64,000 bases of DNA from contig JABIAY010000049.1 in NCBI GenBank assembly GCA_018653085.1, forward strand, positions 118,335-182,334. The letters run 5' to 3'. Within the stretch, counting starts at the first letter, position 1. Every line of letters starts with the position of its first letter. A program made the translations under genes and the position numbers. Below the pieces are notes generated by a model. It saw nothing but the letters and a program-made list of their open reading frames with translations. It ran no database searches and had not been told where the DNA came from. This DNA comes from Nitrospina sp. Lineage in GTDB: Bacteria > Nitrospinota > Nitrospinia > Nitrospinales > VA-1. Of this stretch, positions 14,489 through 64,000 are shown in pieces.

Positions 14489-14520
14489 AATATCGATAAT
14501 ACTCCACCCGCCCACTTCCG

Positions 14521-14766
14521 TGGGAGGAAATCAGCAATATCTACCCCTCCGGGGCACTAAGTTTAAGGGGGGATATCACGTACGTACTGGCCCCACGCCT
14601 TCGGCGGTCGCAGTAGCGTCACCGCCACATTGCCACCGGCGGCTCGCCGGCCACGCCTGGTGCTGCTGCCGCAGGGGCAACTGGGCAAGGGCTCATCAAG
14701 CCGAAATAACTCTTTGCTCGCCAGATAAAGCGATGGCACACTGGTCCCACGCCTGGTGGCTAGTGG
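14521..14766. repeat. degenerate double copy of the intergenic hairpin-repeat family (see 59097-59408)
   Basis: 14686-14766 (gcaagggctcatcaagccgaa..ccagataaagcgatggcacactggtcccacgcctggtggctag) aligns with the reverse complement of the 97-bp unit. There is a perfect palindrome ccggcg-gct-cgccgg at 14636-14650. The motif aggcgtggg occurs three times on the minus strand. Confidence 0.7.
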
Positions 14767-15261: not shown

Positions 15262-15525
15262 CTATCGAAGAACAATTCCAGATTTTTTAATGACAAATCC
15301 TTCGTCCAGTTCTTCAATCCATTTCATTTTAATGGCATCATTCTTAGCGATATCGGAACAGATGTAGACACAAATCTCACAAGCCTTGCACCGGTCTACG
15401 GAGACATAAGCCGACTTATCGGCTTCGCTGTAATTGATACAATTAGTTTCAGGGCAGTATTGCGTACAGAGATGGCAGTTCTTAGCCGAACATATCTCCT
15501 TGTTAACTTCAGCAATGTAGTACAT
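15262..15525 (-). CDS. 2-oxoacid:ferredoxin oxidoreductase delta subunit (2x[4Fe-4S] ferredoxin)
   Basis: 87 aa with two Cys clusters (C..C..C...CP and CKACEICVYIC). Last gene of the OFOR operon. Confidence 0.8.
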   Translation of the reverse strand: MYYIAEVNKEICSAKNCHLCTQYCPETNCINYSEADKSAYVSVDRCKACEICVYICSDIAKNDAIKMKWIEELDEGFVIKKSGIVLR

Positions 15526-20059: not shown

Positions 20060-20175
20060 TCCGGCGGTTCGCCCCTTGGCAGGGGAGGCCGATAGCAATG
20101 TCTCGTTAGGCCGAGAAAAAAGTTTGCTTGCTCAATGAGGCTATTGCTTACTGGGTCCAGCGTCACGCTGGCTAG
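20060..20175 (-). repeat. single copy of the intergenic hairpin-repeat family between convergent genes
   Basis: ggaggccgatagcaatgtctcgttaggccgagaa...gctattgc...ccagcg-tca-cgctgg aligns with the reverse complement of the 97-bp unit. It is bounded by the TAG stops of both flanking genes. Confidence 0.75.
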
Positions 20176-25103: not shown

Positions 25104-25721
25104 ATGTCGGAACAACTAGGACTTTTCGGAGAAACAGAGGATCAGGAGGCCCAAAAACCTGTGAAAGTGGCCTCAGGTCCGCGTGTGCAGTATTTCGACC
25201 TGGAAACCCAGAAAAGTGCTGAAGATGTGGGGGGCTGGGGCAATATCCATAAAATGGGCCTGGCTGTCGGAGTAGTTTGGGACAGCCTGGACCAGGAATT
25301 TTTCACTTATGAGGAAAAAGATGCCCGCCAATTGGTAGACAAACTCCGTACTGCTGACCTGGCAGTGGGATTCAACATCATTGGTTTTGACTACACGGTT
25401 CTTCAACCGTATTCCGATTTCGATCTGCAGGAAATAAACACCTTCGATATGCTTGTGGATGTCAAAAAGCAGTTGGGTTTTCGTCTGAGCCTCAACCATT
25501 TGGCACAGCACACGCTCAATGCTGAAAAATCCGCAGATGGATTGGTCTCCCTTCAATGGTACAAGGAAGGAAAGATCAGTAAAATTATCCAGTACTGCAA
25601 ACAGGATGTAGAAATTACCCGGGATTTATTTCTGTTCGGCGAGAAAAATGGCTATGTGAATTATCAGAGTAGATCCGGAAACCCGCTCAAGCTTGAAGTC
25701 AACTGGAAAGCCACCCTCTAA
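25104..25721 (+). CDS. RNase H-like / DEDD 3'-5' exonuclease domain protein
   Basis: 205 aa with acidic motifs YFDLET, GFNIIGFDYTVL and YCKQDVEITRDLF, arranged like Exo I-III of DnaQ/PolB-type exonucleases. Confidence 0.6.
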   Translation: MSEQLGLFGETEDQEAQKPVKVASGPRVQYFDLETQKSAEDVGGWGNIHKMGLAVGVVWDSLDQEFFTYEEKDARQLVDKLRTADLAVGFNIIGFDYTVLQPYSDFDLQEINTFDMLVDVKKQLGFRLSLNHLAQHTLNAEKSADGLVSLQWYKEGKISKIIQYCKQDVEITRDLFLFGEKNGYVNYQSRSGNPLKLEVNWKATL

Positions 25722-25784
25722 CGAGGGAGGCAGAGAGCAATGGTTCATCGAGTCCAGCGTCACGCTGGCCGGCGGCTACGCCGG
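25714..25784 (-). repeat. short (mini) copy of the intergenic hairpin-repeat family
   Basis: Three hairpins: ccctc-taac-gaggg (25714-25727), ccagcg-tca-cgctgg (25754-25768) and ccggcg-gcta-cgccgg (25769-25784). It also carries ggaggcagagagcaatgg, which is shared with the 97-bp unit. Confidence 0.6.
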
Positions 25785-44972: not shown

Positions 44973-45959
44973 TTATTCCATAACGCGATTCCGGCCTTCC
45001 TGCTTGGCCTTATAAAGAGATTGATCAGCCTCTGAAATCAAGATTGAAGATGCGTCACCTCTCTCAGGAACCCTGCTGGCAACCCCTAAGCTAATTGTTA
45101 CAAACTTGTTGACTGGGGAGGCTTGGTGAGGAATTTCCAGTGCTTCTACAGAAGCGCGAACTTTTTCTGCCAGGCTAAAAGCTCCCTTTTGGGATGTATC
45201 CGATAAGATTGCGACAAACTCTTCTCCACCGTAACGAGCTACTAAATCTCCCGGTCGCCTTAAGGACTTTTCAATTGTGCGGGCCACTTTTTTCAGGCAA
45301 TCGTCCCCAGCCTGATGACCATAGGTGTCGTTGTAAAGTTTGAAGAAATCTATATCCATCATGATAGCGGTTGCAGGCTGGGTGTGACGCATTGAAGATT
45401 TCCATTCCCGTTCTAAAAATTTCTCGAATGTGCGCCGATTGGCGATCCCTGTTAACCCATCCAAAGTGGAAAGAAGCTCTAACTGCTTATTGCTTGCCCT
45501 GAGAGATTTTTCAAGCTCTTGATGCTTGATGACAGACTTCTTCAGTTTCTCGTTGGTTTTTTTTGCATCGTTTAGCATTTGCAGTTTTTCAAAGCAACGA
45601 GTCACTCTAAAAAGCAGTTCTTCCTCCTTGCAGGGTTTGAGCAGGTAGTCGGAGGCTCCTAGTCGTAAGGCTTCTATGGATGAATCCATCTCACCGTGGC
45701 CCGTCATTATTACCACCATTGTTTCTGGCTCGATTTCTTTGACCTGTTTTAATACTTCAAGTCCGCCTATTCCATCCATCACTAAATCTGTAATAACCAT
45801 CTGAAGGTTTTCCTTTTTAAAAACCTCCAATCCCTGTTCACCGCCATTTGCGGTTACTACCCTGTAGCCATTCTTTTCCAATACATAGCTTATCCCAGCC
45901 AGGATGGCTTCTTCATCATCAATAAGTAAAACCGCAGGTTTTTTCATGTCAGCTGTCAC
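44973..45959 (-). CDS. response regulator-diguanylate cyclase (REC-GGDEF)
   Basis: 328 aa with a receiver domain (LLIDDEE...ITDLVM), the active-site GGEEF, and an RxxD I-site (RPGD). Confidence 0.9.
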   Translation of the reverse strand: MTADMKKPAVLLIDDEEAILAGISYVLEKNGYRVVTANGGEQGLEVFKKENLQMVITDLVMDGIGGLEVLKQVKEIEPETMVVIMTGHGEMDSSIEALRLGASDYLLKPCKEEELLFRVTRCFEKLQMLNDAKKTNEKLKKSVIKHQELEKSLRASNKQLELLSTLDGLTGIANRRTFEKFLEREWKSSMRHTQPATAIMMDIDFFKLYNDTYGHQAGDDCLKKVARTIEKSLRRPGDLVARYGGEEFVAILSDTSQKGAFSLAEKVRASVEALEIPHQASPVNKFVTISLGVASRVPERGDASSILISEADQSLYKAKQEGRNRVME

Positions 45960-46573
45960 TTTTTTCCTCTAGCCCCTTTTTTTTCTTTATGTTTTTGCAC
46001 GTCCTTCATAATTTCATTTTTGAAATCTTCAGCGCATTTATCACAATAACTGTGACTGATTTCTATTTCAGTTTTTTTTGCGAGGTATAAATCAGGTTCC
46101 ATCCAAATTCCAGTTCCCGGTTCTTGACCCTCATCGTCCCGGATTTTCTTGCAGGCACAGCAGACGGGGAGGAATTTTTCATAGGCTTTTACCTTATGGT
46201 TGAGTATTAATTGATCGATGCACCTGCGGGTTCTCATTAACAGCTCATCTTTATTGCAGGGTTTCTGCATATAATCGAAGGCACCCAGCCTTAAAGCATC
46301 AACAGCGGTGTCCAAAGTGCCATGGCCTGTAAGCACCATCACCAGAGCATCGGGGTGGGTTCCCTTGATTTTTTTTAATACCTCTATGCCACCTATCCCA
46401 CCCATCATTAAGTCAGTGATTACCAGGTCAAAATGCCCTTCTTTAAATTTTTTGATCCCCTCCTCACCACTTTCTGCAGTGGAAACTCTATAGCCTTCTT
46501 TTTTTAAATAACTGCTAAGACCCAGTAAAATGGATTCTTCATCGTCAATTAACAGGATTAAGTGTTTTTTCAT
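45956..46573 (-). CDS. response regulator receiver with C-terminal Cys/His-rich tail
   Basis: 205 aa with REC (LLIDDEES...VITDLMM...KP), then PVCCACKKIRDDEG...SHSYCDKCAE, then a Lys-rich end. Confidence 0.85.
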   Translation of the reverse strand: MKKHLILLIDDEESILLGLSSYLKKEGYRVSTAESGEEGIKKFKEGHFDLVITDLMMGGIGGIEVLKKIKGTHPDALVMVLTGHGTLDTAVDALRLGAFDYMQKPCNKDELLMRTRRCIDQLILNHKVKAYEKFLPVCCACKKIRDDEGQEPGTGIWMEPDLYLAKKTEIEISHSYCDKCAEDFKNEIMKDVQKHKEKKGARGKK

Positions 46574-46588
46574 TGTCGCGTTCTTAAA

Positions 46589-48541
46589 TTAAATAGGAAG
46601 CACTATGGTAAAAGTGGTGCCTTCGTTGTTTTTGCTATTTATCAAAATGTCGCCGCCATGATCCTTGATGATTCCATAGCTGACAGAAAGCCCTAGTCCC
46701 GTTCCCGTTACAGCAGATTTTGTTGTGAAAAACGGATCGAATATGGATGCCGCAACGTCCTCGGAGATTCCACCCCCCGAATCCTGAACGTGTATTTTTA
46801 CATGGTCACCTTCTTTTTCAGTGGTGATGGTGATTTTTCTGTCTTGAGTTTCTTCCGAAATGGCCTCTTCCGCATTTTGAACGATATTTAAGAGAACTTG
46901 CTGGATTTGGTCGCTGACACAATTTACCTCAGGTAAACCATCGGCAAGATATTTTTTAAGATGGATATGCCTTTGCTGAATCCTTTTATGGAGTAAGGTC
47001 AATACGCTGTCGATGACTTGATGGATATCCGCGGGTTTTTTAACAGTAAGCGAAGGTCTATAAAATCCCTGGAGTTTTCTTACCAGATCAGCCATTCGCT
47101 CACATTGTTTGATTGACAAGCCCAGGAATTTAGCGTGATTGTCCTCAAGCGTAGCCTCTTCCTTAACTTGCTCTAAAAGAGTCTTCATACCAAATATTGG
47201 GTTGTTGAATTCATGGGCGATCGAACCGGTGAGCTTGCCCAGTGATGAAAGCTTATCGGTGTGTAAGAGTCTCTCGTGAGAAGCCTTTAACGCCACTTGT
47301 TGTTGAACAAGGTTTCTGATCACAGATATTAATATTATGATCGAGATAATGAGGGTTATCAACAGATACATAGAGAGCACCAGTAGTGACTCTTTTTTCT
47401 CATTCACCGCTTTGAGGCGAAAACTCTCTGCCATTTCTTTGGCAAAGAGGATCATCTTTTGCATGGATTCGTTAAGCGAAGCCACATGTTTTGCACCTTT
47501 TCCCTTTGTGATTTCTGCCGCTTCCGACCTCCTGCCGTCTTTTATGAGGGAAATAACCTCCTCACGAATTTCCTCCCAGCCCAGAAAATCCAGATACGTT
47601 TGTTGGATATCTTCTTTATCCCCAAGGTATCGTTGGAAAATCATTTCAAACTCTTCAAGAACCACTTTTGAATGGGCCTCCACTTTATCAAGGGCAAAAT
47701 TCAGTTGCGCCTCGTCCTCCGACAAGACGACATCCTTCATGTACCGATGAATCGATATCAGGCTGGCATCGATATGTCTGGCGGCATTACTAACAACAAA
47801 GGGGTGTCGGTAAAATTTTTCAGAAATGCTTGCCTGACGATCTATATACGCAATTGAGATTAAGCCCATTACCAGCAATAGCAACATAATCCCGACAAAG
47901 CCGAATATCGTGTATGCATGCTTGATTTTTTGATGCAACGTAACCAGAACCGCACCAAATCCGAGAATGATGAATCCGCTTGCCGTATGAAAAGCCATTC
48001 GAGTCAGGTTCCCCCAGCCATAGGCATTTTCCAGCCCCATCAGGTATCCACTCAGAGCAACAATGCCTAAAGCAAAAACAAGCAAACCCAAAGCGCCTCT
48101 TACCAGCATAGTTCCTTCTTTACTTTTGATTGATGACAACAGAAAAAATAACCCCATTAGGGTAAAGCATAGAGCAGTGTTCGGTGCCATTCGCCCAGGA
48201 TGGGATGTTTTAGTTGTTATAGAATGTTCCTTGAACATTTCGTCAATGCTCAGGTTCACGTTAAAAACATATTCTGCCAGCGTGAGGCCACCCAAAAGGA
48301 TCAGGAAAAAAGCAAGAGGTTTGGAAATTGAATAGCGGGATTTGTGAATAAAAATTCCTGCCAGGCCACAGGCAAGAAATCCCAGCGCAGTGTTGTATTG
48401 CATGGGAGCCCAGTCCGCATGAATTTGGATCAGCCTGGGTTGGTTGGTGTGCCATCCAAACAGGACCACCCCTGCTATCAGAATGGGTATGACATTAGGC
48501 AGATATGTTTTGAGGCTCAACGATGAGTCTGAATTGTCCAC
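46589..48541 (-). CDS. sensor histidine kinase with polytopic N-terminal membrane domain
   Basis: 650 aa with a GTG start and about 7 N-terminal TM helices. H-box AHEFNNPIFGM. ATPase boxes QNAEEA, DSGGGI and GTGLGLSV. Confidence 0.85.
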   Translation of the reverse strand: MDNSDSSLSLKTYLPNVIPILIAGVVLFGWHTNQPRLIQIHADWAPMQYNTALGFLACGLAGIFIHKSRYSISKPLAFFLILLGGLTLAEYVFNVNLSIDEMFKEHSITTKTSHPGRMAPNTALCFTLMGLFFLLSSIKSKEGTMLVRGALGLLVFALGIVALSGYLMGLENAYGWGNLTRMAFHTASGFIILGFGAVLVTLHQKIKHAYTIFGFVGIMLLLLVMGLISIAYIDRQASISEKFYRHPFVVSNAARHIDASLISIHRYMKDVVLSEDEAQLNFALDKVEAHSKVVLEEFEMIFQRYLGDKEDIQQTYLDFLGWEEIREEVISLIKDGRRSEAAEITKGKGAKHVASLNESMQKMILFAKEMAESFRLKAVNEKKESLLVLSMYLLITLIISIIILISVIRNLVQQQVALKASHERLLHTDKLSSLGKLTGSIAHEFNNPIFGMKTLLEQVKEEATLEDNHAKFLGLSIKQCERMADLVRKLQGFYRPSLTVKKPADIHQVIDSVLTLLHKRIQQRHIHLKKYLADGLPEVNCVSDQIQQVLLNIVQNAEEAISEETQDRKITITTEKEGDHVKIHVQDSGGGISEDVAASIFDPFFTTKSAVTGTGLGLSVSYGIIKDHGGDILINSKNNEGTTFTIVLPI

Positions 48542-51340: not shown

Positions 51341-53140
51341 ATGGAAAATCTCTATTCAAATAAAAATACTGAGCCGAGAAGAATTTTAGTTCTGACTGCG
51401 GTCATGGCGGGGATTACCTTTTCTGTTCTCTCAATAGCGCTCTGTATACAGTATCGATCAATGTTCGAACAAGAAAAGAACAGGTTGATCGAAATTGTAA
51501 GAAGTCAAAAAGTGCTGATAGAAAGTATAGCCAGGTTCGATGTCAGGTCCAGTGAGAAAGGCATAGAAGGGAGAGGGTTTGCCGCCACAATAAGTCAAAT
51601 AGTTGAAGCGCATGAGAGCTTAAAAGGCTTTGGCGAAACAGGTGAGTTTACCTTGGGTAGAAGAGAGGGAGATTCCATCGTTTTTATGCTGACGCACAGA
51701 CACGGAACTGGGGAAAACTCAAAATGGATTCCTATGAAATCGGACTTGGCGGAGCCCATGCGCAGGGCCTTGTCGGGTCAGAGCGGCTGGATTTTGGGTC
51801 TCGATTACCGGGGTGAGACCGTATTTGCGGCGTACGAACCGATCGAAGTTTTAAACCTGGGACTCGTAGCAAAAATAGATTTGTCCGAGCTTCGCGCTCC
51901 TTTTATTCAGTCGGCCGTCTATGCGGGATGCATAGCCCTGATAATGATTACCTTGGGCTCCATTTACTTTGTAAGGTCGGGCTCGGTGCTACTGAGGAAA
52001 CTGGGAAAAAGCGAAGCGGATCTCGCTCGCGCTCAGAAAATAGCACACTTTGGGAGTTGGTCATTGGATCTTAAAGAAAATAAACTTAATTGGTCTGACG
52101 AGGTGTACCGCATTTTCGGTTTGCAACCGCAAGAGCTTGACGCGACTTATGATATGTTTCTTGGATTGGTGCATCCTGAAGACCGCGAATCTGTAAAACA
52201 GTCGGTTGACGAGGCCATACATTTATCCAAGCCGTACGACATAGATCATCGCATAGTTTTGCCCGATGGTATCATCCGCGTGGTGAATGAGCGGTCTGAT
52301 CTGGTTTTCAGTGAGACGGGGGAGCCCGTAAGTATGATGGGAACGGTCCTGGACATTACCGAGCGTAAGCAAGCGGAAGAGGAATTGGAAAAACACCGAA
52401 ATCATCTCGAAGAAGTGGTGGCGCAGCGGACTCATGACCTCGAAGCGACTCAGCACCGGCTTGTGCATTCCGAGAAACTGGGAGCCATCGGCAAGCTATC
52501 CGCTTCGATAGCACATGAGTTCAACAACCCAATTTTTAGTATCAAGTCCGCCCTGGAAGAAATTAGTGAAGATGTGGAGATGGATAAAGGGTCAGCAGGC
52601 CTCCTGGACATTGCGGTCAAGGAGTGTGACCGAATCGCCAGATTAACGCGCAGTTTGCAGGATTTCAACCGACCCTCTTTAGATATTTTCGAGGCCATTG
52701 ACATCCATAAGGCGATTGATGAAATACTTTTGTTGAGCAGGAAAAATATCAAGGCAAAAAATATAGAACTTTGCCTGAATTATGACAAACATCTGCCAGA
52801 AGTCGAGGTGGTCCCCGATCAGTTCAAACAGGTGGTTTTGAATATGCTTCAAAACGCCGAAGAGGCGATTGATCAGGGAGGGTCGCTTACTATCACCACT
52901 GAACAGGTGAATTCCAGTGCCAATATTTCTATTAGTGATACCGGTTGTGGAATTCCACCTGATATTATGAAGAATATTTTCGAACCTTTTTTTACCACCA
53001 AGTCAGCGGTGAAGGGTACCGGGCTTGGGCTTTCTGTTTGTCACGGAATTGTTGAGTTACACGGCGGGGAGATAAAGATAGATAGTCGAACCAATCAAGG
53101 TACTACTGTGACCCTGGTTTTTCCTTTGAGGCGTAACTAA
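51341..53140 (+). CDS. sensor histidine kinase (TM-sensor-PAS-HisKA-HATPase)
   Basis: 599 aa with a PAS block (FGSWSLDL...WSDEVYRIFG), the H-box AHEFNNPIFSI, and ATPase boxes QNAEEA, DTGCGI and GTGLGLSV. Paralogous to 46589..48541. Confidence 0.85.
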   Translation: MENLYSNKNTEPRRILVLTAVMAGITFSVLSIALCIQYRSMFEQEKNRLIEIVRSQKVLIESIARFDVRSSEKGIEGRGFAATISQIVEAHESLKGFGETGEFTLGRREGDSIVFMLTHRHGTGENSKWIPMKSDLAEPMRRALSGQSGWILGLDYRGETVFAAYEPIEVLNLGLVAKIDLSELRAPFIQSAVYAGCIALIMITLGSIYFVRSGSVLLRKLGKSEADLARAQKIAHFGSWSLDLKENKLNWSDEVYRIFGLQPQELDATYDMFLGLVHPEDRESVKQSVDEAIHLSKPYDIDHRIVLPDGIIRVVNERSDLVFSETGEPVSMMGTVLDITERKQAEEELEKHRNHLEEVVAQRTHDLEATQHRLVHSEKLGAIGKLSASIAHEFNNPIFSIKSALEEISEDVEMDKGSAGLLDIAVKECDRIARLTRSLQDFNRPSLDIFEAIDIHKAIDEILLLSRKNIKAKNIELCLNYDKHLPEVEVVPDQFKQVVLNMLQNAEEAIDQGGSLTITTEQVNSSANISISDTGCGIPPDIMKNIFEPFFTTKSAVKGTGLGLSVCHGIVELHGGEIKIDSRTNQGTTVTLVFPLRRN

Positions 53141-54114
53141 TGAGTGATAAATCCATACTGTATATAGATGATGAGACGTCTCTTCTTCAAATCATGAGTC
53201 ACGCCCTGGAAAAAAGGGGCTATGAAGTAGCAACAGCCAGCAGTGGTGAGAGTGGGTTGCAAATTTTCAACGAAATAAAACCGAATGTGGTGGTTACCGA
53301 TATCATGATGGAGGGTATCAGTGGCATTGAGGTGTTGAAACAGGTTAAGAAGGAAAGACCGGACACTGTAGTTATCGCTCTTACCGGATACGGGACCATG
53401 GACACATCCATAGAAGCTCTCAGGCTGGGAGCTTATGATTATCTGCTGAAACCCTGTGACCGGGACGAGTTAGCCATCAAAATATCCAAAGGCCTGAAGC
53501 AACAGGGCATGGAAAGGCAAATTAAGGACTTGAATGAACAATTGATCGCTGCCAACTCTGAATTAATAAAAAGGGAAGAAAAACTCAAATCCAAAACAGA
53601 AGAACTGGAGAAATTAGCCATTCTCGACGGATTGACAAATACTTATAACAGGCGATATCTCGATCAATATTTAGATCAAGAGGTGAAGCGGGCGATTAGG
53701 AATAAGCATGAACTCGCCTGTGTTTTGCTGGATATCGATTGTTTCAAACAATATAACGATAACTACGGTCATCAGGCTGGTGATGACGGTCTTAAACAGA
53801 TTGCCAAGGTGCTTTGCGAATCACTGCATCGTGCCAGCGATATCATTGCTCGCTACGGAGGAGAGGAGTTTGCGGTGATCCTGCCAGATACGTCATTAGA
53901 GGGAGCGCTCAAAATAGCAGAGGCGATAAAAGAAGCCGTTGTGTCGCTGAATATCGAACATGCACATTCTTCTGTTGCTGAATGTGTAACCGTCAGCCTG
54001 GGGGTTAGTGCTTTCAAGCCTGCAAACGGATTCCAGACTAGAACCCTAGTCGAAGCCGCTGATAAGGCTCTTTATAAAGCCAAAAATAATGGCCGCAATC
54101 AGGTTTCCTATTGA
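53140..54114 (+). CDS. response regulator-diguanylate cyclase (REC-GGDEF)
   Basis: 324 aa with REC, GGEEF and an RxxD (RASD). The start overlaps the kinase stop by 1 nt. Paralogous to 44973..45959. Confidence 0.9.
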   Translation: MSDKSILYIDDETSLLQIMSHALEKRGYEVATASSGESGLQIFNEIKPNVVVTDIMMEGISGIEVLKQVKKERPDTVVIALTGYGTMDTSIEALRLGAYDYLLKPCDRDELAIKISKGLKQQGMERQIKDLNEQLIAANSELIKREEKLKSKTEELEKLAILDGLTNTYNRRYLDQYLDQEVKRAIRNKHELACVLLDIDCFKQYNDNYGHQAGDDGLKQIAKVLCESLHRASDIIARYGGEEFAVILPDTSLEGALKIAEAIKEAVVSLNIEHAHSSVAECVTVSLGVSAFKPANGFQTRTLVEAADKALYKAKNNGRNQVSY

Positions 54115-54592: not shown

Positions 54593-54608
54593 CTGTCACA
54601 AAAGCAAA

Positions 54609-54790
54609 TCCCCCCAACCCCCTTCGTAGAAGGGGGAGCTTCAATGGACCCCTCTTTTTCAAAGAGGGGCTGGGGTGATTTACAACCTCCTGTTAAGCCG
54701 AGCCCCCTGGCAGGGGAGGCAAATAGCTATTGCTCATTTCCTCAAGGCGTAGCCTTGTTGCCAGTAGCCAGCGGCGGCTCGCCGCTAACC
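54609..54790 (-). repeat. hairpin cluster plus short copy of the intergenic repeat family
   Basis: Perfect hairpins cccccttc-gta-gaaggggg (54618-54636), cccctcttt-ttc-aaagagggg (54649-54669) and agcggcg-gct-cgccgct (54770-54786). ggcaggggaggcaaatagctattgc is shared with the copy at 20060-20175. Confidence 0.6.
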
Positions 54791-56176
54791 TACAATATTG
54801 TATCTTCGCGCCCGGTATTTTACGCCGAACTCTTTATTGACGATGGTTTCGCATTGAGCTTCATCGACATCCTTCTGGTGCGTGACGATGGTGGCCTGCA
54901 CTTCGGGAATGTATTTTTTAGCCTCGGTGATGAACTCTTTGATCTTGTCGTAGATGCCGTTCCTGAACATGGGTAGAGGCTGGCAGATTTCGTCATAGGC
55001 TTCTGAAGTATCGGTGTTGAGGCTTACCGAGATTTCATCGATCAGCCCAGACAGTTCAGGAAGAATATTGCGTTTGTTGATGACGTTGCCGTGCCCGTTG
55101 GTATTGAGCCGCACACGCCCGCCGGCATCTTTTATTTTTTGTGCCACTTCCTTGACGACATCCAGTCTTAACGTTGGCTCGCCAAACCCACAGAAAACGA
55201 TCTCGTCATAGTTTTTAACATTGTCGATAGACTGCCAGACTTCTTCTGTTGTTGGTTCTCGTTTCAGTTCCAGGTTATAGCCTTGAACTACAGGTTTGGT
55301 CAGTCGGGTGCAGAAAGTGCAATTCGCCGTGCACCGTTGTGTCAGGTTGAGATAAAGAGAGTTGCGGATTTTATAAGAAACGGTTCCAGTTTTAGCGTTT
55401 TCTCCGATTCCGAACAGTTCGAAAAAGTTGAGGGCCATGGTGCGCTGTACGTCGTCAATTTTTAGTCCGCGAATTTCCGCAAGTTTTTCAGCGGTGAAGT
55501 TCACATAGGCCGGTTCGTTCCGTTTGCCCCGGTGCGGAGTGGGGGTCAGGTAGGGGCAGTCGGTTTCGGTGAGCAGTCGGTCTGCCGGAATGGTTTTTGC
55601 CACTTCCCGCAGAGCCTCGGCTTTTTTAAAAGTTACCGAGCCGGAAAAAGAGATATAAAATCCCATCTCCAGTGCTTTGTCAGCCAGTTCCTGATCTCCG
55701 GAAAAGCAGTGGAAGATTCCCGGGCGTGCTGTTGAGTCTTTCGGGTAGAACTCGGACAGGATGGCGATGATATCTTCGTTGGCATCCCGGCTGTGTACGA
55801 TGATGGGTTTGCCCATATCATGGGCCAGCTGAATTTGATTACGAAAATGAGTGCGCTGGACATCATGTGGCGAATAATTTTTGAAGAAGTCGAGCCCGAT
55901 TTCTCCCAGGGCGATAACTTTCGGGTGTAGCAAAAGTTGTCGCAAGTGGACATAGGTGTCTTCGGTGATGGATTTAACATCGTGCGGATGGATGCCGGCG
56001 GTGGCGTATATGAAGTCATACTGTTCCGCCAGTTCCATGGAGCGGTAACTGCTTTCGACATCGCAACCGATATTGACCATATACTGCACCCCGCTTTCGC
56101 GGGCACGCTCGATGACCTCTTCACGGTCTTCGTCATAGTCGGCGCCATCAATATGCGCGTGGGTATCGATGATCAT
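54785..56176 (-). CDS. TatD-family hydrolase fused to a radical SAM domain
   Basis: 463 aa. The N-terminal half has TatD motifs (IIDTHAHID, HSRDA, ETDCPYL). The C-terminal half has CTANCTFC (CxxxCxxC) and GFGEPTL. Confidence 0.85.
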   Translation of the reverse strand: MIIDTHAHIDGADYDEDREEVIERARESGVQYMVNIGCDVESSYRSMELAEQYDFIYATAGIHPHDVKSITEDTYVHLRQLLLHPKVIALGEIGLDFFKNYSPHDVQRTHFRNQIQLAHDMGKPIIVHSRDANEDIIAILSEFYPKDSTARPGIFHCFSGDQELADKALEMGFYISFSGSVTFKKAEALREVAKTIPADRLLTETDCPYLTPTPHRGKRNEPAYVNFTAEKLAEIRGLKIDDVQRTMALNFFELFGIGENAKTGTVSYKIRNSLYLNLTQRCTANCTFCTRLTKPVVQGYNLELKREPTTEEVWQSIDNVKNYDEIVFCGFGEPTLRLDVVKEVAQKIKDAGGRVRLNTNGHGNVINKRNILPELSGLIDEISVSLNTDTSEAYDEICQPLPMFRNGIYDKIKEFITEAKKYIPEVQATIVTHQKDVDEAQCETIVNKEFGVKYRARRYNIVG

Positions 56177-58098
56177 CTTACCTGAATCCCTTGTCCCGGC
56201 TCCTGATCGAATCCGGCCAGCATGATTTTGCCGTCATTGCTTGCCGCGAGGACCATGCCTTGCGATTCGATGCCCATCAGCTTTACGGGTTTGAGGTTGG
56301 CAACAATGATGACCGTTCGTCCAACAAGGTCTTCGGGTTCATAGCTTTCGGCGATGCCTGCCAGCACCTGCCGGGTCTCGGTGCCGATATCGACTTTCAG
56401 CTGGATGAGTTTTTTTGATTTTTTAACTTTTTCCGCTTCCAGGATTTTACCGGTTCTCAGTTCCACCTTCATGAACTCGTCAATGGTGATCTGGTTTGAA
56501 TCGTCCTCTTTTTTGGATGCGGAGGGTTCGGAAAGTTTCTCAAGAATTTTTGCCGCCTGTTTGTCTTCGATTCTTGGAAACAACTGTTCGGCTTTTTGTG
56601 TTTGGCTTCCCGGTTTCAGTCCACCCCATTTGTTGATGGAATTCATACCCTGTTCTTCGATGGCAGTTTCAACGCCCAGTTGTTTCATCATCGCCTCGGT
56701 GCTTTGCGGCATGAACGGATTCAACAAGACTCCCAAAACGCGAAGCGATTCGGCGCAGTTGTACATCACGGTTTTTAATTGCTCTTTGCCTTCATCGGTT
56801 TTTGCCAGATTCCACGGGCCGGTTTTGACGATGTATTGATTGGTGGTATCCACCAGTTCCCAAATCTTTTGCAGGATTTTATTGTAAGCCAGTTCGTTAT
56901 AAAGGTTACGCACTTCACCAATCACTTCTCCGGCTTTTTGAGTGAGTGAACTGTCCTCCGGCCCTTCTGTCGCAGGGGTGGGAATGATTCCATCAAAATA
57001 TTTCTCCATCATATTGACAGTTCGGTTTAGCAGGTTGCCGAGGTTGTTGGCCAGGTCGCTGTTGAGTCTGCCTATGAGGGCTTTATGCGAGAAGTCGCCG
57101 TCCAGTCCGAAAGGAACTTCCCGCAGAAGGAAATAACGGATGACATCAACCCCGAACTGATCGATCAACTGGTTGGGCTCCACAACATTTTGTAGTGACT
57201 TGGACATCTTTTGTCCGTTCACGGTCCACCAGCCATGCGCGAAAATATTTTTCGGTGGTTCCAGTCCAATGGCCTTGAGCATGGTGGACCAATATACCGC
57301 GTGCGTGGTGAGAATATCCTTGCCGACCATATTATGATCGGCAGGCCAGAACCCGGAGGACTTGATGTCGTCCAGCGAACCGTGGATGGAAATATAGTTG
57401 ATCAGCGCATCGAACCAGACATAGGTTACGTAATCTTCATCGAAGGGAAGGGGGATGCCCCAGGCAAGTCTGGATTTGGGCCGCGAGATGCATAAATCTC
57501 CCAGCGGTTTTTCCAGAAAACCAAGCACCTCGTTTCTACGGGAAGCCGGCAGAATGAAATGCGGATCGTTTTTAATTTTTTCGACCAGCCACTGCTGATA
57601 TTTTCCCATGCGAAAAAAATAATTATGTTCTTTGATCTTGTCCACCTTGCGGCGGCACTCCGGACAGTTTCCTTCAGCCAGATCTTTCTCGGTCCAGAAC
57701 CTCTCGCAGGGTGTGCAGTACCAGCCTTCGTAGCTGTCCTGATAAATTTCATCCCTGGAGTGGAGTTCCTGAAGAATATCTCGGACCAGTTTTTTATGTC
57801 GCTCCTCGGTGGTGCGAATGAAACCGGTGTTGGAAATATTGAGCCGCACCCAGAGTTCTTTGAACCGCTGATGCAGTTTGTCGACATGTTCCTGAGGGCT
57901 CACGCCAACATCATTGGCGGCCTGCTGGACTTTTTGCCCATGCTCATCCGTGCCGGTCAGGAAAAAGACTTCATTTCCTTCAAGGCGTTTGTAGCGGGCC
58001 ACCACATCCGCCGCGATAGTAGTATAGGCATGGCCTATATGGGGGACATCGTTCACGTAGTAAATAGGAGTGGTGATATAAAACTTGTTTTGTTGCAT
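56173..58098 (-). CDS. metG: methionine--tRNA ligase
   Basis: 641 aa with HIGHAYT (HIGH), KMSKS, a zinc knuckle CPECRRK, and a C-terminal tRNA-binding (Trbp111-like) domain. Confidence 0.97.
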   Translation of the reverse strand: MQQNKFYITTPIYYVNDVPHIGHAYTTIAADVVARYKRLEGNEVFFLTGTDEHGQKVQQAANDVGVSPQEHVDKLHQRFKELWVRLNISNTGFIRTTEERHKKLVRDILQELHSRDEIYQDSYEGWYCTPCERFWTEKDLAEGNCPECRRKVDKIKEHNYFFRMGKYQQWLVEKIKNDPHFILPASRRNEVLGFLEKPLGDLCISRPKSRLAWGIPLPFDEDYVTYVWFDALINYISIHGSLDDIKSSGFWPADHNMVGKDILTTHAVYWSTMLKAIGLEPPKNIFAHGWWTVNGQKMSKSLQNVVEPNQLIDQFGVDVIRYFLLREVPFGLDGDFSHKALIGRLNSDLANNLGNLLNRTVNMMEKYFDGIIPTPATEGPEDSSLTQKAGEVIGEVRNLYNELAYNKILQKIWELVDTTNQYIVKTGPWNLAKTDEGKEQLKTVMYNCAESLRVLGVLLNPFMPQSTEAMMKQLGVETAIEEQGMNSINKWGGLKPGSQTQKAEQLFPRIEDKQAAKILEKLSEPSASKKEDDSNQITIDEFMKVELRTGKILEAEKVKKSKKLIQLKVDIGTETRQVLAGIAESYEPEDLVGRTVIIVANLKPVKLMGIESQGMVLAASNDGKIMLAGFDQEPGQGIQVR

Positions 58099-58115: not shown

Positions 58116-59048
58116 TCAGGGTTTTTGAGGCTTTTGATGTTTTTGAGGTTTTTGATGTTTTTGTGGATTTTGTGAATTTTGTGGGTTTTGTGGGTTTTGT
58201 GGATTTTTGGCTTCTGGCAGTTCGTCCAGAGGATAGGTCACTATGTTTTCATCTTCCAGTCGAACCACGACACGCTGTTCCAGAATTTCATTTTTCAGGA
58301 CCCGCCCCGGGCCTTCCGGAGTTTGAATCGGGCTGTTTACTTTGGGCAGATTCTTGATAAGGGCTTTGTAGTTGTCGTGCTCATATTGCAGGCAACACAT
58401 GAGCCGTCCGCATACGCCGGAAATTTTACTGGGGTTGAGTGCCATGCCCTGGTTTTTGGCCATTTTTATAGTCACCGGTGTAAAGTCGGGGAGCCAGGTG
58501 GAACAGCAAAGCGTTTCCCCGCATACTCCATAACCCCCGATAACTCTTGCCTCGTCACGCACTCCGACTTGCCTCATCTCAATGCGATGGCGCAGATTGG
58601 AAGCCAGGTCACGGATCAACTGGCGAAAGTCCACCCGGCCTTCGGCGGTGAAGAAGAAAATCGTCTTGTTCATATGCGGCTGGTGCACCACCCGACTCAG
58701 GTTCATCGGCAGTTTCAGCTCTACAATTTTATCATTACACAGGATCCTGGCCTTTTCCTCGACCTGATTTCGCCGGCTTTCTACCTGAAAGTCGTTGTCA
58801 TTGGCGATACGCAGTACCCGGTTAAAGCTACGGTTCTCGCGAAAATTGCGCATCTTGTTTGAGGCCACCACACCCATTTTTAATCCCTGCTGGGTGTTGA
58901 TCATCACTGTCATTCCTACCTTTAGTTTCAAGTCTTCCGGATTATAAAGTTCCGATTTAACCTGGTCCAGAATTCGCACCCCAATAACAAATCGGGCCGG
59001 TTGCTTGGGAGGAGAGTTTTTAGCAGTTTCTTTAACGGCAGTATTCAT
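58116..59048 (-). CDS. ricT: PSP1 domain protein (RicT/YaaT-like) with C-terminal PQN/PQK repeat tail
   Basis: 310 aa with the PSP1 motif CGRLMCCLQYEHDNY. Conserved holB-yaaT synteny. Tail NPQNPQNPQNSQNPQKHQKPQKHQKPQKP. Confidence 0.85.
   Translation of the reverse strand: MNTAVKETAKNSPPKQPARFVIGVRILDQVKSELYNPEDLKLKVGMTVMINTQQGLKMGVVASNKMRNFRENRSFNRVLRIANDNDFQVESRRNQVEEKARILCNDKIVELKLPMNLSRVVHQPHMNKTIFFFTAEGRVDFRQLIRDLASNLRHRIEMRQVGVRDEARVIGGYGVCGETLCCSTWLPDFTPVTIKMAKNQGMALNPSKISGVCGRLMCCLQYEHDNYKALIKNLPKVNSPIQTPEGPGRVLKNEILEQRVVVRLEDENIVTYPLDELPEAKNPQNPQNPQNSQNPQKHQKPQKHQKPQKP
58119..58211 (-). repeat. 9-bp-periodic coding repeat (PQN/PQK tail of RicT-like protein)
   Basis: The plus strand reads as iterations of ttttg(a/t)gg(c/t/a) units (ggtttttgaggcttttgatgtttttgaggtttttgatgtttttgtggattttgtgaattttgtgggttttgtgggttttgtgg). 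Confidence 0.8.
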
Positions 59049-59096: not shown

Positions 59097-59408
59097 CTGC
59101 CTCCGGCGGCTCGCCGCCACTAGGCGTGGGGCCAACTGGCAATGGCTATATCTGGCTAGCAATGATCTTCTCGGCTCAACGAGCCCTTGCTGTCTGCCTC
59201 CGGCGGCTCACCGCCACTAGGCGTGGGGTCAACTGGCAATGGCTATATCTGGCTAGCAATGATCTTCTCGGCTCAACGAGCCCTTGCTGTCTGCCTCCGG
59301 TGGCTCACCGCCACTAGGCGTGGGGCCAACTGGCAATGGCTGTACCTGGCTAGCAATGATCTTCTCGGCTCAACGAGCCCTTGCTGTCTGCCTCCGGTGG
59401 CTCACCGG
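59097..59408 (+). repeat. tandem array, 3 full + 1 partial copies of a 97-bp unit
   Basis: Units start at 59097, 59194, 59291 and 59388 (ctgcctccgg...). The period is exactly 97 bp with 2-4 substitutions between units. There are no spacers. The last partial unit abuts the holB TAG stop. Confidence 0.92.
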
Positions 59409-60428
59409 CTATGCGGCCTCACAAAATTCGATAAGCATGTTTTCCAGAAACAGTTGGGCATTGGCGTTGCCGGACAAAGCGACCTGGGTATTGCGGACAA
59501 CGGTGAAACGATCCAGCCAGGTTTTTAGACTGCGGGTTTGGGCTATCTGTATCAGATTAGCCGATAAATTTCTATTCTGGATATCTGATTGACTGCAACC
59601 GGAACGATAGAGAGCCAGGTCACGAATCAAACCCAATAATTCATTTAATACGGACTGCAGTTGTTCTGTCTGCTTTGCCCAGGTTTTCGCAAAGGCAAAC
59701 ACGATGTCCATACGGTCGAAAGACACTTTTTCCAGAACTTCCAGTAGTTGTTCTCTTATAGTTTCCATTTCCTCAAAGTCTTCAGCCAATGCCCGGTCGA
59801 CACTCCCCTGTGACCGCTGGGTGTGAAAGTCGAGATCTGATTCTGTCAACGACTCGCCTTTTTCCTGAAGCTGAGATTGGATAATTTCCCTGATCTCTGA
59901 TGAAGAGAGGCGGTGAAACTGTATCCCCTGACACCTTGATAGAAGGGTCGGCAATAGTCTGTGAGGGTTTGAAGATATCAGTATCAGTACAGTAGATGAA
60001 GGAGGTTCCTCCAGCGTTTTTAAAAAAGAGTTCGCGGCCTGAAGATTCAAGAGGTCGGCGGAATCGACCACCACGACTTTTGTTTTCCCTTCATAGGGTA
60101 GATAGGCCAGTTTTTTTTGCAGTTCACGAATCGGTTCAATCTTAATAACCGCTTCCCGGGAAGTGGGGGTGCTTTTAACCGGTTCGATAAAGAAAAAATC
60201 AGGATGGACGCCGCGCTCAATTTTCAGGCAGGATTCGCACTCGTCACAAGCATCCAGTGGGTCAGACCCTTTACAGTTGAGAGCTTTGGCCAGGGTAATG
60301 GCCAACTTTTTTTTTCCGATACTCTCTTGTCCATAAAACAGGTAGGCGTGTGCGACACTGCTGTTTTGGAGAGCGTTTGTCAGTATTTTTTTTGGCTGTG
60401 ACTGCCCCAGAATTTGCTTAAACGACAT
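59409..60428 (-). CDS. holB: DNA polymerase III subunit delta'
   Basis: 339 aa. N-terminal HAYLFYGQESIGKK is a degenerate P-loop. CDECESC zinc module. VVVVDSADLLN (box VI). Confidence 0.9.
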   Translation of the reverse strand: MSFKQILGQSQPKKILTNALQNSSVAHAYLFYGQESIGKKKLAITLAKALNCKGSDPLDACDECESCLKIERGVHPDFFFIEPVKSTPTSREAVIKIEPIRELQKKLAYLPYEGKTKVVVVDSADLLNLQAANSFLKTLEEPPSSTVLILISSNPHRLLPTLLSRCQGIQFHRLSSSEIREIIQSQLQEKGESLTESDLDFHTQRSQGSVDRALAEDFEEMETIREQLLEVLEKVSFDRMDIVFAFAKTWAKQTEQLQSVLNELLGLIRDLALYRSGCSQSDIQNRNLSANLIQIAQTRSLKTWLDRFTVVRNTQVALSGNANAQLFLENMLIEFCEAA

Positions 60429-63801: not shown

Positions 63802-64000
63802 GTGAATTTACGAGCCGATGAAATCAGTTCCATAATTCAAAAGCAGATTGAAGGCTTTGAAGGAGGGATCGAGCTCAAAGAAACCGGACGGGTAATTTCC
63901 GTGGGAGATGGAATCGCGCGGATTTATGGTCTCGGCGAAGCGATGTCGGGCGAACTCCTTGAATTCCCCGGTGGACTCGCTGGCATGGTTTTGAACCTCG
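63802..64000 (+). CDS. atpA: F0F1 ATP synthase subunit alpha (5' partial, runs off window)
   Basis: GTG at 63802. It translates to [18 protein letters not shown]...[16 protein letters not shown], the canonical AtpA N-terminus. It is not in the ORF track because it is truncated by the window edge. Confidence 0.9.

Follow-up and report, generated by a model that had tools for sequence, protein, structure and literature searches.

A tandem array at the holB stop codon of Nitrospina and the hairpin-bounded intergenic repeat family to which it belongs

In a Nitrospina sp. genome the spacer between holB and the downstream PSP1/RicT-family gene is taken up by a GC-rich 97-nt unit repeated head to tail. 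We asked what this array is, whether its unit occurs elsewhere, and how it could have come to lie directly against the stop codon of holB. The array was analyzed within a 64,000-nt stretch of DNA (the window) and compared with related contigs; the features discussed are collected in Table 1.

Table 1. Array, family copies and neighboring genes in the window
Feature	Position	Strand	Remarks
Tandem array, three complete 97-nt units and a partial one of 21 nt	59097-59408	+	read from the sequence; covariance-model matches of 100-108 bits
Array units, phase of the original prediction	59097-59193, 59194-59290, 59291-59387, partial 59388-59408		
Array, phase of the family	59097-59116, then units 59117-59213, 59214-59310, 59311-59408		59097-59116 is a leading CTGCCTCC plus hairpin
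Terminal hairpin ccggtggctcaccgg (CCGGTG-GCT-CACCGG)	59394-59408	.	adjoins holB stop, 59409-59411
AT-rich, non-repeated 48-nt tail from array to PSP1 start codon	59049-59096	-	common to the 74-nt spacer of L123 and L124
holB, DNA polymerase III delta' subunit (Pfam DNA_pol3_delta2)	59409-60428	-	TAG stop 59409-59411
PSP1/RicT-family gene, downstream of array	58116-59048	-	in L125 and L126 starts 5 nt past the holB stop
metG	56173-58098	-	
tatD-radical SAM fusion	54785-56176	-	
Composite nest of family modules downstream of ndk	14516-14759	-	best single copy 14662-14759, 83.6 bits
Single diverged copy	20060-20171	-	fills the entire spacer of convergent DUF1841 and sucD
Shortened copy (right half) between convergent genes	25710-25784	-	
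Shortened, diverged copy	54697-54784	-	directly past the tatD-radical SAM stop; 8-nt spacer in L125

The tandem array between holB and PSP1

The only strong tandem array that Tandem Repeats Finder reported in the window lies at 59097-59407, with a period of 97, 3.2 copies, 97% matches, no indels and a score of 580. This bears out the period and copy number given in the original prediction, and the unit-specific substitutions listed there read as described. A 41-nt core of the unit was counted three times in the sequence and not once in 100 shuffles, and the G+C content of the array is 62% versus 46% for the window. All genes around the array (holB, PSP1, metG and the tatD-radical SAM gene) lie on the minus strand, and the 'U' orientation in which we describe the family corresponds at the array to the plus strand of the window, antisense to holB and PSP1. 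The array occupies the whole spacer up to the AT-rich tail and begins at the first base past the holB stop, so the hairpin CCGGTG-GCT-CACCGG is indeed found where it had been placed, immediately 3' of the TAG. In the phase of the family each unit starts with CCACTAGGCGTGGGGCC and ends with GCCTCC followed by the CCGGYGGCTCRCCGS hairpin. The C-terminus of HolB (...EFCEAA*) is identical in relatives that do not carry the array, many metagenome contigs and the MAG GCA_018697965.1 code for exactly this HolB protein, and HolB homologues bear the names Nitrospina, Nitrospinaceae and Nitrospinae.

Several familiar identities were considered for the array and set aside. As stated in the original prediction, this is no CRISPR array: each unit runs directly into the next without a unique spacer, and the neighbors are holB, PSP1, metG, tatD and the atp operon, with no cas genes nearby. 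A coding repeat is incompatible with the period of 97 and with the absence of the sequence from relatives. Since this period is not a multiple of 3, plus-strand open frames switch frame with every unit and are not genes; they also lie antisense to the operon, which agrees with their earlier description as artefacts. A mini-ORF after GGAGG on the gene-sense strand was likewise dismissed, its ATG not being conserved in the family, where core position N varies. No intrinsic terminator (a GC-rich hairpin with a U run) is present at the array on either strand.

We compared the same site in related contigs. The claim that the holB-PSP1 spacer is normally short holds for two related Nitrospina lineages (L125 and L126, ~83% nucleotide identity to the window), in which it reads TAA-AACTT-ATG and measures 5 nt, while in two others (L123 and L124, ~88% identity) a 74-nt spacer consists of one solo hairpin, GGAGGCAGATAG and the AT-rich tail. 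These empty or solo-hairpin spacers identify the array as a lineage-specific insertion, in keeping with the original prediction. Among sequences at least 99.8% identical to the window, L003 and L007 have 1.2 units, L001 and L004 have 2.2 units with different units missing, and L002, L008 and the window itself have 3.2 units; these counts come from short-read assemblies, and the 1.2- and 2.2-unit variants may be real alleles or collapsed repeats. A further contig, L005, also has 3.2 units and is identical to the window from position 64000 down to ~57100 and ~83% identical below that point. L005, with an identical array between flanks of seemingly 96% identity, is not evidence of constraint, since the contig switches to diverged sequence at ~57100.

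An assembler might itself have created the tandem copies or their number. Contigs L130 and L070 have their ends inside arrays, L130 beginning within the holB-PSP1 array, a run of N interrupts this array in L006, and the assemblies disagree on copy number. However, the same 3.2-copy sequence with the same substitutions is present in the window, in L002 (GCA_018697965.1, an NCBI MAG), in L005 (ENA) and in L008 (JGI), three different sources, and at least three copies are thus independently supported. Moreover, the substitutions that distinguish the units allow short reads to order them, and collapse lowers copy number and cannot create copies. An artefact of this kind is therefore extremely improbable. 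A metagenome scan for unit-to-unit junctions returned only 4 loci (the holB-PSP1 locus at a contig end and three overlapping contigs of another Nitrospina region), and is uninformative on how common arrays are.

The neighborhood has other repeats and gene arrangements of its own. The 3' end of PSP1 contains a 9-nt tandem repeat of ~9.4 copies (58120-58209; also scored at periods 18 and 27), which codes for a PQN/PQK-rich tail. PSP1 length ranges from 282 to 310 aa among relatives, and the 9-nt repeat is probably a coding length polymorphism. The tatD-radical SAM gene encodes a TatD nuclease and a radical SAM domain in one 463-aa protein, overlaps the metG stop by 4 nt, and is kept as a fusion in all Nitrospina relatives examined. 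Farther away, two paralogous pairs of a PAS histidine kinase and a response-regulator GGDEF gene lie in inverted orientation at 44973-48541 and 51341-54114, and give rise to the long inverted repeats 45282-45361/53726-53805 and 45631-45704/53383-53456.

A dispersed family of hairpin-bounded repeats

The unit is not confined to the holB-PSP1 spacer. BLAST, nhmmer and a covariance model gave 5 family loci in the window, and the diverged copies that had been claimed at four other places were found at 14662-14759, 20071-20170, ~25710-25775 and ~54697-54784. Beyond the window, a scan with a degenerate 21-nt core, GARNCNTTGCTNTCKGCCTCC, across one genome per prokaryotic species found at least 114 loci; among the matches listed, at least 28 are from Nitrospina, Nitrospinaceae, Nitrospinales or Nitrospinota MAGs, and those outside Nitrospinota are single hits in unrelated taxa. 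A covariance model (R1) built from 14 full-length copies had 61 matches in 286 kb of Nitrospina DNA and 1 match in 610 kb of other loci. This one match is on L092 (CAXCBS010000196.1), a 2.2-kb contig binned as Candidatus Peregrinibacteria, which is 85% identical to the Nitrospinales chromosome L029, carries the orthologous element and is, given this identity, almost certainly mis-binned. The copies elsewhere thus uphold the prediction of a dispersed family rather than a local duplication, and as far as the sample extends the family appears to be restricted to Nitrospinota. Arrays also occur at other sites: L070 has 2.0 copies of a related 89-nt unit at a contig end, adjacent units are present in L017, L101 and L120, and in all four the units are linked by a CCGGTGGCTCACCGG hairpin, as in the holB array. 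The literature that we searched describes no repeat family in Nitrospina, and the elements constitute a previously undescribed family of ~100-nt hairpin-bounded intergenic repeats of these marine nitrite-oxidizing genomes.

The elements are GC-rich, non-coding and modular. In the U orientation, the left module is CCAC-TAGGC-GTGG followed by GGCC, replaced in some copies by CCAGCGTGACGCTGG. It leads into a conserved center of ~60 nt, which contains ACTGGCAATAGCTTTT and GGCTAGCAAAGAGTTATCTCGGCTCAACGAGTCATTGCTATCTGCCTCC and ends in TTGCTATCTGCCTCC, and of which ~33 nt are kept among species that share only 60-85% identity in HolB. The right hairpin combines a free stem sequence with a conserved loop of the CTAG/CTAA type (CCAC-GGCTA-GTGG, CCTC-GCTA-GAGG or CCCT-GCTA-AGGG), or has the variant form CCGGYG-GCT-CRCCGG, as in the holB-PSP1 array. 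In L042 and L014 it reads CCCAC-GCCTA-GTGGG, the inverted left module, and these copies have true terminal inverted repeats, CCACTAGGCGTGGGG ... CCCACGCCTAGTGG. Such repeats are limited to a subset of copies (the L042, L014 and L046 type), and the remaining copies, including those of the array, have other hairpins instead. Many copies are shortened or mosaic. The consensus at the foot of the hairpin is GCGTGGGG, with GTGG in place of GTAG; the latter was seen only as a stem variant in one copy, L046.

We examined whether the hairpins are supported by compensatory change. The terminal hairpins were 98% (left) and 93% (right) paired with many compensatory pair types, in an alignment that was fitted to the covariance model. 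Helix 1 (98% paired) showed the types CG37/GC7/AU6/UA6 and AU31/GC14/CG6, helix 7 (93% paired) showed CG25/GC19 and others, and the pairing of both was far above every shuffle and every slid control. The stem variants CCAC/GTGG, CTCC/GGAG, CTAC/GTAG, CCGC/GCGG and GCAC/GTGC were also visible in the raw sequence and in a MAFFT alignment. Furthermore, the C/T and G/A positions of the 59394-59408 hairpin covary across the family: L089, L017, L070 and L101 have a T-A pair, whereas the array's own hairpin at 59105-59118 has C-G, as do L054 and L029. Thus, even allowing for the model-fitted alignment, the terminal hairpins are supported by compensatory change.

The remainder of the fold is less uniform. 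Support for the inner helices is weaker, and they contain many G-T pairs; under the predicted structure, 141 G-T pairs versus 56 A-C pairs fall on the U strand, an excess that we did not take as a sign of a strand-specific fold because the structure was predicted on that strand. Eighteen of the 61 real copies (~30%) fold end to end into one long hairpin, as the two inverted REPs of a REPIN do, and the array units do not; a hand-made composite consensus that joins the family center to a ACGGCTAGTGG right end folds end to end with z ~ -5. For RNA of the entire spacer, folding was better than in shuffles in the gene-sense direction (z = -2.47) and not in the opposite one (z = -0.16).

The conserved center, the covarying hairpins and the G-T excess could indicate that each unit is transcribed, or processed, into a trans-acting structured RNA, which would make the array a cluster of small-RNA genes. 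However, no Rfam family matched anywhere in the window at gathering thresholds, and at E values up to 10 the array gave only IMPDH RNA at chance level (13.7 bits against a threshold of 95, E = 5.8). No promoter-like or terminator-like site was found in or adjoining the array on either strand, and the window has no tRNA or tmRNA. Furthermore, elements occur inside operons in both orientations: between co-directional genes, the U strand was sense at 8 loci and antisense at 11 by crude gene calls, which argues against an orientation-dependent RNA role for the center. Together with the abundance of shortened and mosaic copies, the weak inner helices and the bias in the G-T count, this leaves a small-RNA array very unlikely.

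Stop codons, hairpin loops and the genes around them

The GC-rich spacers of the window are all at gene 3' ends, and in the family as a whole the elements keep close to stop codons. In 27 of the 51 non-overlapping copies, an ORF of at least 100 aa has its stop codon no more than 15 nt from an element end, in 14 of them at 0-1 nt, and TAA or TAG directly precedes CCAC at 7 of the 19 clear left ends. In some cases the element itself provides the stop codon. Thus ndk ends at the TAG of a CCACTAG remnant. Between the convergent genes for an RNase H-like exonuclease and a MoxR ATPase, the 54-nt spacer consists entirely of the 25710-25784 element, and both stops sit in its hairpin loops (CCCTC-TAAC-GAGGG and, on the other strand, CCGGCG-GCTA-CGCCGG).

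At ndk, ~165 nt are inserted between CCACTAG and GCGTGGGGCC, that is, inside the loop of an older CCAC-TAG|GC-GTGG left hairpin. The repeat content of this spacer is unlike that of the near-identical strain L132 (L132 1565-1758), which has ~108 nt of a second repeat family that are missing from the window. The copy at 20060-20171, whose left end is the alternative CCAGCGTGACGCTGG hairpin, showed no strain polymorphism, all contigs compared being alike. The tatD-DUF423 spacer is filled in some lineages and empty in others.

Other elements and one affected gene call were noted as well. At 54600-54680, and in L017, L056, L070 and L132, there is a second hairpin family, short and GC-rich, with CCCC(T/C), a loop and GGGG, for example CCCCTCTTTGAAAAAGAGGGG. 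A longer 'family 2' unit has the form CCAGTACTGCATTGC..CAAGCAA..TCAAGCGCAATACTTT, and both it and the CCCC/GGGG hairpins adjoin the main family in several Nitrospina genomes. In the complete Nitrospina chromosome L126, the called start of DUF423 lies inside an element copy (15325-15400), giving a protein of 161 aa versus 141-144 aa elsewhere.

Placement of this kind raises the possibility that the hairpins are kept because they regulate expression in the service of the host, a reading compatible with a mobile origin. On this view, ribosomes terminating at holB would be stalled by the hairpin at its stop codon and less HolB would be made, 3' hairpins would shield upstream mRNA from exonucleases, and the ratio of HolB to PSP1, whose genes are otherwise tightly coupled in the operon, would depend on the array. 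According to the summary in PMC12306157, a gene in E. coli is translated less when a REP follows its stop codon at a distance of fewer than 16 nt (Liang et al. 2015), and REPs stabilize upstream mRNA (Newbury et al. 1987). The position of the first hairpin immediately past the holB stop, the proximity to stops in the family, the covarying stems, the better fold of the gene-sense spacer RNA and the retention of an orthologous copy at one site in two Nitrospinales, 85% identical, are consistent with such a role. However, related species have an empty spacer and copy number varies, so that no fixed dose is required; moreover, the center occurs in mixed orientation, and placement beside stops may only reflect short 3' spacers as the sole tolerated landing sites. 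We consider it unlikely that the array is maintained as a host-serving cis element.

Side effects on the host are likely all the same, to judge from the layout of the locus. The holB-PSP1 distance is 360 nt with four strong hairpins in the window versus 5 nt in relatives, where the PSP1 ribosome-binding site is likely to lie inside the holB 3' end. The array is therefore likely to place a stable hairpin at the holB stop and further hairpins in the holB-PSP1-metG-tatD transcript, with loss of the tight holB-PSP1 coupling.

Origin of the array and relation to known repeats

Within the array, the units share 97% identity; the best other copy in the window reaches 74-76%, and no copy elsewhere exceeds ~81%. 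As each other's closest relatives they multiplied in place and are not separate arrivals, which supports the recent amplification that their near-identity had suggested. The family behaves as REP/BIME/REPIN- or MITE-type repeats do: its members sit in 3'-end spacers in either orientation, differ in presence and absence between lineages (as at the orthologous holB-PSP1 and tatD-DUF423 sites), and nest within themselves. Some copies are old, such as the orthologous element of L029 and L092, in which at 85% flank identity the ends are conserved and the center has diverged. We conclude that the array is probably a locally amplified cluster of a Nitrospinota-specific, non-autonomous interspersed repeat of the REP/BIME/REPIN- or MITE-like kind.

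In the history that we propose, an element would have landed directly past the holB stop, where relatives have a spacer of 5 nt. The direct repeat 'hairpin + GGAGGCAG' flanks its 97-nt unit at either end, and unequal recombination or replication slippage between these direct repeats would then have duplicated the unit head to tail, resulting in 1.2 to 3.2 copies. The same recombination or slippage would also give contraction to a solo hairpin, and the 74 nt between holB and PSP1 in L123 and L124 resemble a solo remnant of the hairpin + GGAGGCAG repeat. Alternatively, given the ndk case, the array could have grown by repeated self-targeted insertion beside the hairpin.

A RAYT-like HUH transposase would be the obvious candidate for spreading the element, and in REP/REPIN systems the genome has a RAYT (TnpA_REP) gene between copies of the repeat; a tblastn search with an E. 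coli RAYT sequence as query gave no match in 316 kb of Nitrospina sequence, equivalent to ~10% of one genome and drawn from many genomes. No transposase was found among 20 ORFs of the window nor among the genes flanked by elements, and membership in any named family is accordingly unproven. Direct repeats indicative of a target-site duplication were absent from the 20-nt flanks of 35 copies and from the empty and filled holB-PSP1 sites, which weakly suggests an HUH mechanism (RAYT or IS200-type) rather than DDE transposition. In the loci examined we saw no insertion sequence that shares the ends of the element and could be its parent.

These absences of a transposase and of target-site duplications count against a mobile repeat, as does GTGG in the place of the GTAG tag typical of REPs. 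The conservation of the ~33-nt center goes beyond what would be required of an element that is purely selfish and may point to a function in the host, and some of the copy-number variants on which local turnover is based may be collapsed in their short-read assemblies. A doubtful further interpretation is a distinct non-autonomous class that targets positions just past stops and its own hairpin loops, the CTAG/CTAA loops serving as ready-made stops on either strand. Such a class would be moved by an enzyme other than RAYT, and the host may use it to tune termination or polarity. With respect to the interspersed-repeat reading that we prefer, GTGG instead of GTAG, the lack of target-site duplications and the lack of a transposase lead us to call the family REP/BIME/REPIN-like or MITE-like and to file it under neither.

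Several known systems offer close parallels. E. coli BIMEs are mosaics of hairpin modules found at 3' ends and within operons; BIME-2 elements are arrays of alternating REPs with a tandem copy number that varies between strains. The Nitrospina family shares with BIMEs the small set of hairpin modules and linkers, tandem reiteration, variable copy number and location at gene 3' ends or within operons; in contrast, its sequences are unrelated and it has a ~60-nt conserved non-palindromic center. The E. coli BIMEs are reportedly the subject of Bachellier et al. 1994, cited in PMC6006769. Pneumococcal BOX is likewise a modular intergenic repeat, with an internal boxB module in variable tandem number; it resembles our family in this modularity and reiteration and differs in sequence and host, and in Nitrospina the whole unit is reiterated instead of an internal module. 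Among MITEs with structured bodies (reviews PMC3184786, PMC10969869) are Neisseria Correia/NEMIS and enterobacterial ERIC/IRU, for which head-to-tail tandem arrays are not typical, and we know of no parent insertion sequence with ends matching those of the Nitrospina family. These MITEs and our family are alike in their length of ~100-150 nt, a subset with terminal inverted repeats, insertion in either orientation, co-transcription with neighboring genes and the ability to provide stop codons, whereas the Nitrospina elements form head-to-tail arrays with no target-site duplication detected. The foot of a REP hairpin bears a conserved tetranucleotide, GTAG or CGTC (PMC3733652, PMC6006769). Our family lacks this tag; it resembles REPs and BIMEs in its GC-rich palindromes of conserved structure, which in those families are imperfect and ~20-60 nt long, and in its extragenic location at 3' ends in high copy number, to judge from the 61 matches in 286 kb. 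In P. fluorescens SBW25, REPINs form tandem clusters and are inserted into or beside other REPINs (Bertels & Rainey 2011, PMC3116915). The Nitrospina elements are similar to these in being extragenic, ~100 nt long and, by extrapolation, present in many copies per genome, with two short palindromes around a spacer that are inverted copies of each other in a subset, ordered clusters of near-identical tandem copies, new copies in or beside old ones and long persistence in a lineage. They differ in that no RAYT gene was found, in the GTGG consensus, in array units that end in the CCGGYG-GCT-CRCCGG hairpin rather than an inverted left end, in the ~30% of copies that fold end to end, and in belonging to Nitrospinota rather than Proteobacteria.

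Altogether, the array is real, a tandem cluster from a repeat family that is new and, in the sequences sampled, specific to Nitrospinota, and that probably represents a familiar kind of interspersed repeat in bacteria; it is fairly ordinary and of modest interest, and current views of bacterial repeats are unchanged by it. Its most unusual features are the exact placement at stop codons, the stops within hairpin loops and the case in which an older copy received an insertion in its hairpin loop. Nitrite oxidation in the ocean is mainly the work of Nitrospina, which are almost entirely uncultured, and for their genomes the family explains intergenic breaks in contigs as well as gene calls that run on into spacers, since it can mislead gene callers, as at the start of DUF423 in L126 and in the plus-strand ORFs at the array. 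The copy number of the array and its presence or absence provide a hypervariable marker for co-existing strains, and the family offers a non-proteobacterial system for the study of REP-like spread and of the effect of stop-codon hairpins on expression.
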